From the NCBI RefSeq assembly GCF_033153115.1, contig NW_026889752.1:2728001-2792000 (forward strand): a stretch of 64,000 nucleotides of DNA, given 5' to 3'. A program made the position numbers and the translations under genes. This stretch comes from Saccostrea echinata. Its lineage: Eukaryota. The notes beneath the pieces are model-generated. The model ran no database searches and had not been told where the DNA came from. It saw nothing but the letters and a program-made list of their open reading frames with translations. Shown in pieces: positions 26,794-27,109 of this stretch; the stretch's first letter is position 1; each line of letters starts with the position of its first letter.

Positions 26794-27073
26794 CTTAAAA
26801 GAAAACAAGTTGTAAGACTTTACAATTTTATTTTAGAGAAACCGCAACTCACAATTTTAACAAATAACAATAAAATAATTAACTTTACAAAACCTCCTGA
26901 AAAATAAATAAATTATAAATAACATTTCATTTTCCAAAATATTACAGTTCAGTTGTTTGTTTTTTTAAAATAGTATATAAATATGATTAACATAAAGATG
27001 ATTGAACATACATGTACGTACCTTAAAAGAAAACAAGTTGTAAGACTCTACAATTTTATTTTAGAGAAACCGC

Positions 27074-27109
27074 AACTGAGGTTGTCAGGGCGCGCACGGC
27101 CATTATATA
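27074..27109 (-). promoter_or_regulatory. TATA box + Initiator of the gag-array unit (also at 24706-24743 and 22361-22396)
   Basis: Minus strand reads TATATAA (27109-27103) then TCAGTT with the +1 A at 27077, 32 nt downstream. A 56-nt exon and a GTACGT donor at 27021 follow. Confidence 0.6.

Follow-up and report, generated by a model that had tools for sequence, protein, structure and literature searches.

Intron loss is treated as a hallmark of reverse-transcribed DNA, and Penelope elements are the recognised exception. Penelope-like elements keep a leader intron in their terminal repeat (pseudo-LTR), and in D. virilis Penelope deletion of this intron abolished reporter activity, with RNA levels unchanged (available text of PMC2377424). 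These elements combine a reverse transcriptase (RT) with GIY-YIG, have no integrase and form the pseudo-LTR by tandem insertion; in the available text no copy of the exon at the intron end is described (PMC2377424).

Splice sites are also found within LTRs. In the foamy-virus LTR, which has a single R, a donor upstream of the poly(A) signal controls its use by U1-mediated suppression (available text of PMC3694450). Spliced LTR transcripts of maize have introns within the LTRs, and their splicing is higher in younger loci. The transcripts are described as noncoding, and the text available gives neither exon duplication nor a retention mechanism, 'direct repeat' having 0 matches in it (bioRxiv 10.64898/2026.05.08.723830).

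Env-bearing Ty3/gypsy elements of a chromodomain clade, the 'ancient errantiviruses', have been reported from Cnidaria, Mollusca and Annelida (available text of PMC13524379). In the family described here the order gag-pol-env, an F-type env, a chromodomain behind the integrase and a tRNA primer-binding site (PBS) are found again, and, judged by gene order and domains, it is of the kind reported there. The main text, as available, contains neither 'splic' nor 'polyadenyl', has 'intron' in a reference title only and does not describe the LTR layout. From the canonical U3-R-U5 scheme, as set out in a review of Ty3 (available text of PMC5371799), the present element shares tRNA priming, a polypurine tract (PPT), two identical LTRs and strand transfer by terminal redundancy. 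It departs from that scheme in a 56-nt sequence that occurs twice in each LTR.

Anatomy of the window array and class of the element

The window, i.e. the whole stretch of 64,000 nt of Saccostrea echinata DNA that was analysed, includes an LTR-gag-LTR-gag-LTR relic spanning positions 21977-27570 on the minus strand (Table 1). The LTRs of 873-882 bp diverge pairwise by 4.5-5.8%, and the internal regions of units 1 and 2 by 5.1%. LTRs 1 and 2 are followed by a PBS, presumably of the tRNA-Ala type, and LTRs 2 and 3 are preceded by a purine tract.

Table 1. Features of the LTR-gag-LTR-gag-LTR array, in window coordinates.
Feature	Position	Strand	Remarks
LTR 1 (5'-most), 876 bp, TAATATAG...TATAAAA	26695..27570	-	ends set by alignment with solo LTRs
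TATA box TATATAA, 32 nt upstream of copy 1	27103..27109	-	from sequence
Copy 1, predicted exon 1	27022..27077	-	start site and splicing predicted
Predicted 228-nt GT...AG intron of the 5' LTR transcript	26794..27021	-	predicted; final 56 nt are copy 2
Extra acceptor-like TTTTCAG	26897..26904	-	conserved in the window element's family only; role unexplained
G preceding copy 2, possible cap-templated base	26850	-	20/22 family LTRs; 6/16 repeat types
Copy 2, predicted functional R and U5 start	26794..26849	-	function predicted
U5, start of predicted exon 2	26695..26793	-	from LTR alignment
PBS TGGTGGAGAAT, 3 nt past LTR 1	26681..26691	-	from sequence
Unit 1 internal region: decayed gag, pol and env deleted, 3' UTR	25201..26694	-
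PPT upstream of LTR 2	25205..25215	-
LTR 2, shared between units	24328..25200	-	copy 1 24709-24654, G 24483, copy 2 24482-24427
PBS after LTR 2	24324-24314	-
Unit 2 internal region, gag only	22859..24327	-	PPT at 22873-22863
LTR 3 (3'-most)	21977..22858	-	copy 1 22364-22309, G 22134, copy 2 22133-22076
Left target-site copy CTCT	27571..27574	-	right copy CTTT 21976-21973; 3/4 match

A search of the genome DNA gave 54 matches. Among them are young solo LTRs that are 97-99.9% alike, several of which are flanked by 4-bp target duplications, as well as decayed coding relatives in which gag, RT, rve integrase, chromodomain and a baculovirus-F-like env were recognised. The order Retrotrans_gag, RVT_1, Integrase_H2C2/rve was found in the relative L065, the window copy retaining gag alone. 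Baculo_F env, which is missing from the window derivative, scored above the cut-off downstream of pol in L063 and L065, and a chromodomain (PF00385, E 1.5e-7) lies C-terminal to the integrase in L063. Seven young LTRs, two of which have common flanks, were checked for the target duplication. It is exact in four (L031, L033, L034 and L037) and has a single mismatch each in L032 and the window array; neither L036 nor L038 is a solo insertion. The 12 frames scanned gave no match to a tyrosine recombinase or GIY-YIG family. By its LTR pair, PBS, PPT, target duplication and the domain order of its relatives, the element is a Ty3/gypsy LTR retrotransposon (Metaviridae), and the array, as judged from these comparisons, derives by local deletion from an env-bearing member. 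A mobile gag-only family is not supported, since the deletion junction was spanned by two of nine matches in the genome search, both inside the window.

Among the relatives, L063 (372-5574) has an internal deletion, by which 58 nt of LTR run straight into the integrase region, and it sits within another repeat; the empty site of this insertion is visible in RNA contigs of all four of four runs. Tandem env-bearing elements with a common LTR (L094/L095) are arranged as in the window and are 100% identical across the 3.9 kb compared.

The 56-nt sequence was originally predicted to occur twice per unit, and this was confirmed in all three units. The two copies have one difference in LTR 1, two in LTR 2, and one substitution plus a 2-nt insertion in LTR 3. 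In each unit copy 1 is preceded by C, with TATATAA 32 nt upstream, and followed by GTACGT, whereas copy 2 has a G in front of it and GCCAAAAG behind it. Copy 1 of LTR 1 has an initiator-like TC-A-GTT start, AATAAA at +18, and a pyrimidine tract and AG at its end, directly before the donor GTACGT; in copy 2 AATAAA would specify the poly(A) site of the 3' LTR, and the terminal AG is the predicted acceptor. A near-exact repeat at this fixed place was found in the three window units and 19 more LTRs of the family, which is far beyond chance. Copy 1 is followed by GT in 22/22 family LTRs and copy 2 in 0/22; in the wider clade, copy 2 still has GT after it in 7 of 21 rows.

As the exon ends in a pyrimidine tract and AG, identical letters would be an exon end in copy 1 and an acceptor in copy 2, and copy 2 with U5 corresponds letter for letter to the RNA 5' end expected after splicing of copy 1 to U5. 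To this extent copy 2 reads as the spliced 5' end that had been proposed. However, it is not fused directly to a gag exon: about 100 nt of U5 and the PBS lie between it and the gag ATG at 26657, which is followed by frameshifts and stops. Nor do the boundaries of the element fall at the 56-nt repeat, as alignment of the genomic copies puts the pair inside an ordinary LTR.

Distribution of the duplicated predicted exon and concerted evolution of its copies

The layout, initiator-exon-AG/GT, spacer, exon copy-AG/U5, was present in 17 of 20 env-bearing loci, two of them aged; the other three are without a recognised LTR. The env of the 20 loci is 26-36% identical to the query, and the LTRs of the 17 carriers are largely different in sequence. 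Ten further loci that are close in RT comprise four carriers, one element with both LTRs intronless, four env-less non-carriers and one with no LTR seen. In distant gypsy elements the layout was found in none of 19 LTR pairs (20 elements examined; four LTRs only roughly delimited). In the RT tree, every carrier lies on one side of a 100/100 branch, interleaved with four env-less non-carriers; the tree leaves out L076, L090, L100, L106 and L110, in which the RT match is absent or partial, and the trees were built without published errantivirus sequences. The env-less elements of the carrier RT clade that have no repeat are L136, L138, L140 and L142. Given these and L154/L155, which is intronless in both LTRs, the intron is not essential. 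Among 90 metagenome and viral loci, most of them partial or outside the clade, the layout was found in L164 only, a metagenome locus with gag-pol, no env match and a 66-nt repeat, which lies inside the carrier RT clade.

About 15 repeat types of the S. echinata genome, like L164, carry a matching pair of their own. In intact types the repeat is 44-78 nt long, with a copy-to-copy spacing of 228-1333 nt. Identity of the copies starts within ~5 nt of the initiator-like A, and a TATA box, where present (5/16 rows), lies 30-32 nt upstream of the repeat start. At the 3' side, identity stops 0-7 nt past AG/GT in all 17 loci when aligned by unanchored BLAST (the other per-type row listing is anchored on AG/GT).

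The two copies of an LTR evolve in concert. Within an LTR they differ by a median of 1.8% (22 family LTRs), as compared with 17-26% between subfamilies in both copies. A given copy 2 is closer to its own copy 1 than to a foreign copy 2 in 280/280 comparisons across subfamilies and in 49/72 within one subfamily, where 11 comparisons were opposite and 12 were ties. Near-complete homogeneity extends over spacers of 230-1330 nt, and old copies drift apart. The sisters L146 and L150 each have a variant common to their own two copies, and each also has one difference between copy 1 and copy 2 that is present in both its own LTRs and absent from the sister. As a sequence pattern, this fits recopying at each insertion.

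The G before copy 2 had been suggested to be templated by the cap. It is nearly constant in the window family (20/22 LTRs), but among repeat types of the clade it was found in 6 of 16 against 2.7 expected (P ~0.04, with rows that are not fully independent and with the aged copies L091 and L107 and the redundant L012, L031 and L149 omitted). A universal cap G is thus rejected, and in some lineages the base may be cap-templated. Copying of the cap by RT is known; a literature search for cap copying by RTs of LTR elements found no paper.

The acceptor-like TTTTCAG, 47 nt before copy 2, was considered as the true acceptor and rejected: exon 1 joined to TTTTCAG gave 8 matches in a genome search as compared with 12 for the control. 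The four inspected were unrelated sequence, and five of the eight belong to one tandem array. In both LTRs of L144/L145, 15 nt of the acceptor end are repeated in tandem behind copy 2 but not behind copy 1, so that either of two AGs could serve.

A proposed split R region and its alternatives

The pair is best read as a split R region that would keep a spliceosomal intron heritable through reverse transcription. The probability of this reading is put at about three in four, its start site, splicing and poly(A) site being predicted from the sequence. The LTR reads U3-copy 1-GT...spacer-copy 2-U5. Transcription would start at copy 1 of the 5' LTR, and the cap-proximal donor would be spliced to the final AG of copy 2, giving an RNA with the 5' end copy 1-U5-PBS. 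Copy 1 of the 3' LTR is not close to the cap, and the spacer would be retained there. The adjacent donor probably masks the AATAAA of this copy 1, by way of U1 if the analogy with foamy viruses applies, and cleavage would occur inside copy 2, upstream of the acceptor AG. In an RNA ending inside copy 2 the acceptor would be cut off, and hence the spacer would survive in the template. Minus-strand strong-stop DNA, consisting of U5 and copy 1, sometimes with a cap-templated C, would then pair with copy 2 at the 3' terminus of the RNA, and the new LTR would again be U3-copy 1-intron-copy 2-U5, its copy 2 having been newly made from copy 1. If the DNA jumped to copy 1 instead, the LTR would come out intronless, and if it jumped from an unspliced RNA, further copies would arise.

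No other scheme could be constructed that both keeps the intron and homogenises the copies. If copy 1 served as R, the copies would drift with an unspliced RNA, and the intron would be lost with a spliced one. Further support comes from L105 and L145, in which the exon is without AATAAA and the hexamer lies right before copy 2, with none before copy 1; the hexamer is likewise right before copy 2 in L164. As compared with the canonical LTR, R would be present twice: splicing would make the 5' R out of copy 1, copy 2 would supply the 3' R, and exon 1 and the intron would accordingly belong to the functional U3. As compared with the foamy-virus LTR, the donor follows the poly(A) signal and R is duplicated.

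Of the alternatives, the one that survives best, itself improbable, has almost no R: the spliced RNA would be cut where copy 2 begins or slightly upstream, and strong-stop DNA would be joined end to end, the junction and the G being remade in each cycle. It would account for the enrichment of G and for differences in the bases before copy 2 among close relatives (A in L081 and G in L083; L099 versus L101), for the 11-nt shorter end in L007 and L010, and for the distance of 22-27 nt from AATAAA to copy 2 in L105 and L164. However, in most intact types AATAAA is inside the repeat, at +18 to +29, which places cleavage well inside copy 2 with a normal R overlap, and the junction is the same in both LTRs of young elements and in most young copies.

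A little less credit is given to a genomic RNA that is unspliced in the LTR. The intron would then serve translated mRNAs only, copy 1 would be an ordinary R, and gene conversion or template switching would homogenise the copies. Close repeats can indeed be homogenised at the DNA level, and the 5' splice was not seen in the RNA contigs, in which identical copies collapse. Penelope is considered to keep its intron with spliced and unspliced RNA coexisting (available text of PMC2377424). Left unexplained are the bounding of the repeat by the predicted start and donor in every type and the near-complete homogeneity across long spacers while old copies diverge; in L105 and L145, moreover, copy 1 would be without a poly(A) hexamer.

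The duplication had originally been compared with a spliced cDNA inserted into its own intron. That the pair is a trace of reverse transcription from spliced RNA is supported, but a one-off event of this kind (an aborted intron loss), or a local duplication later amplified, is very improbable, since the pair is a standing part of the LTR across a Ty3/gypsy clade and seems to be made anew at replication. The local sequence fits such an insertion exactly, the extra G included. Against it, each of the ~15 repeat types and L164 has its own matching pair, and a single old event would have left copy 2 alike across families and drifting from copy 1, the opposite of what was observed. A processed retrocopy in the intron was rejected, as there is no poly(A) tail, copy 2 continues into U5 and the PBS, and the copies co-evolve.

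Split direct repeats of the Ngaro/PAT type or a Penelope pseudo-LTR, also raised at the outset, are equally remote readings, the likeness of tandem units with an internal repeat being superficial. The relatives have an rve (DDE) integrase, and true LTR pairs, PBS, PPT and 4-bp target duplications are present. For Ngaro/PAT/DIRS, the repeat lies within an ordinary LTR and does not form an element end; for Penelope-like elements, the frames scanned gave no GIY-YIG match and the LTR pairs are real. Least probable of all is the proposed 59-nt GTGAGT...AG mini-intron. In each of the three window LTRs its GTGAGT and the start of copy 2 do overlap, but its GT is found in just 5/22 family LTRs and is lacking from the other types listed.

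Some aberrant LTRs bear on the split R reading. Among 16 clade elements with both LTRs seen, the intron is present in both LTRs in 12, in the 3' LTR only in two, and in neither in one; in the remaining one the 5' LTR is truncated at copy 2. Intronless LTRs were found in L017, L021 and both LTRs of L154/L155, and LTRs with three or four copies in L009 and L024. These intronless and multi-copy LTRs match the by-products that the split R would be expected to give, and recombination between the copies in DNA is an equally possible origin. The elements L102/L103 and L112/L113 are young (LTRs >99% alike) and have a precisely intronless 5' LTR and a 3' LTR with the intron; such a loss from the 5' LTR only is not directly predicted by the split R. 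In L088 (1324-1507) the 5' LTR is cut to copy 2 and U5, starting a few bases before the repeat, with no target duplication seen by eye.

RNA was represented by assembled contigs of seven runs, in which identical copies collapse. The repeat of L063 is collapsed into one 61-nt contig with nothing readable. A solo LTR (L004, 338-1990) is found downstream of spliced exons of an expressed host gene, in the sense orientation, and may supply the 3' end of that gene; the exons upstream of it show GT..AG joints in 4/4 runs. One contig bridges host sequence and U3, and the spacer is unspliced in contigs of one sample (runs X1 and X3), in weak agreement with an LTR of the 3' type in the split R model. 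In L004, where the copies differ at four places, the contigs listed include no joint across the spacer and none into U5; the ends of contig cover differ by run, and missing cover is no evidence.

Relation to known introns and implications

In the literature searched, which leaves most subscription journals and Repbase reports outside its coverage, no description of a duplicated first exon or a split R in LTRs was found. The element class is known; its LTR architecture with a duplicated exon likely makes an intron heritable through reverse transcription. Introns can be gained by duplication of an AG/GT sequence, which then serves as the donor in the first copy and the acceptor in the second. 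The present case differs in that the exon alone, and not the spacer, is repeated and in that the copies stay identical rather than diverging. The Penelope leader intron, found in a different class of elements, comes closest in function, and the reporter result suggests why such introns are kept (available text of PMC2377424).

A more general proposal can be made tentatively, at somewhat less than even odds. By a split R, LTR retroelements would escape the stripping of introns: each cycle would take the intron out of the 5' end of the RNA and read it again from the 3' end, and the intron would have been kept through a deep radiation of animal errantiviruses because the spliced 5' end passes as host mRNA in export, translation and surveillance of intronless RNA. 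In human cells, intronlessness is a cue for HUSH silencing (available text of PMC8770142). With the layout described here, a simple change in the geometry of strand transfer would give LTR and ERV-like elements a heritable 5' intron. The layout also alters the annotation of U3, R and U5 in the carrier clade, and the divergence of copy 1 from copy 2 provides an internal age clock for solo LTRs.

Elsewhere in the window, a 670-aa open frame at 18549-20561 (+) has zero Pfam matches, and its motifs are taken to resemble those of a Zator-type DNA transposase. Satellite-like arrays with a unit of ~166-170 bp occupy 14681-15845, 35277-36469 and 53542-53956, and inverted-repeat elements lie at 9412-10651, 29941-30489 and 45372-46664.
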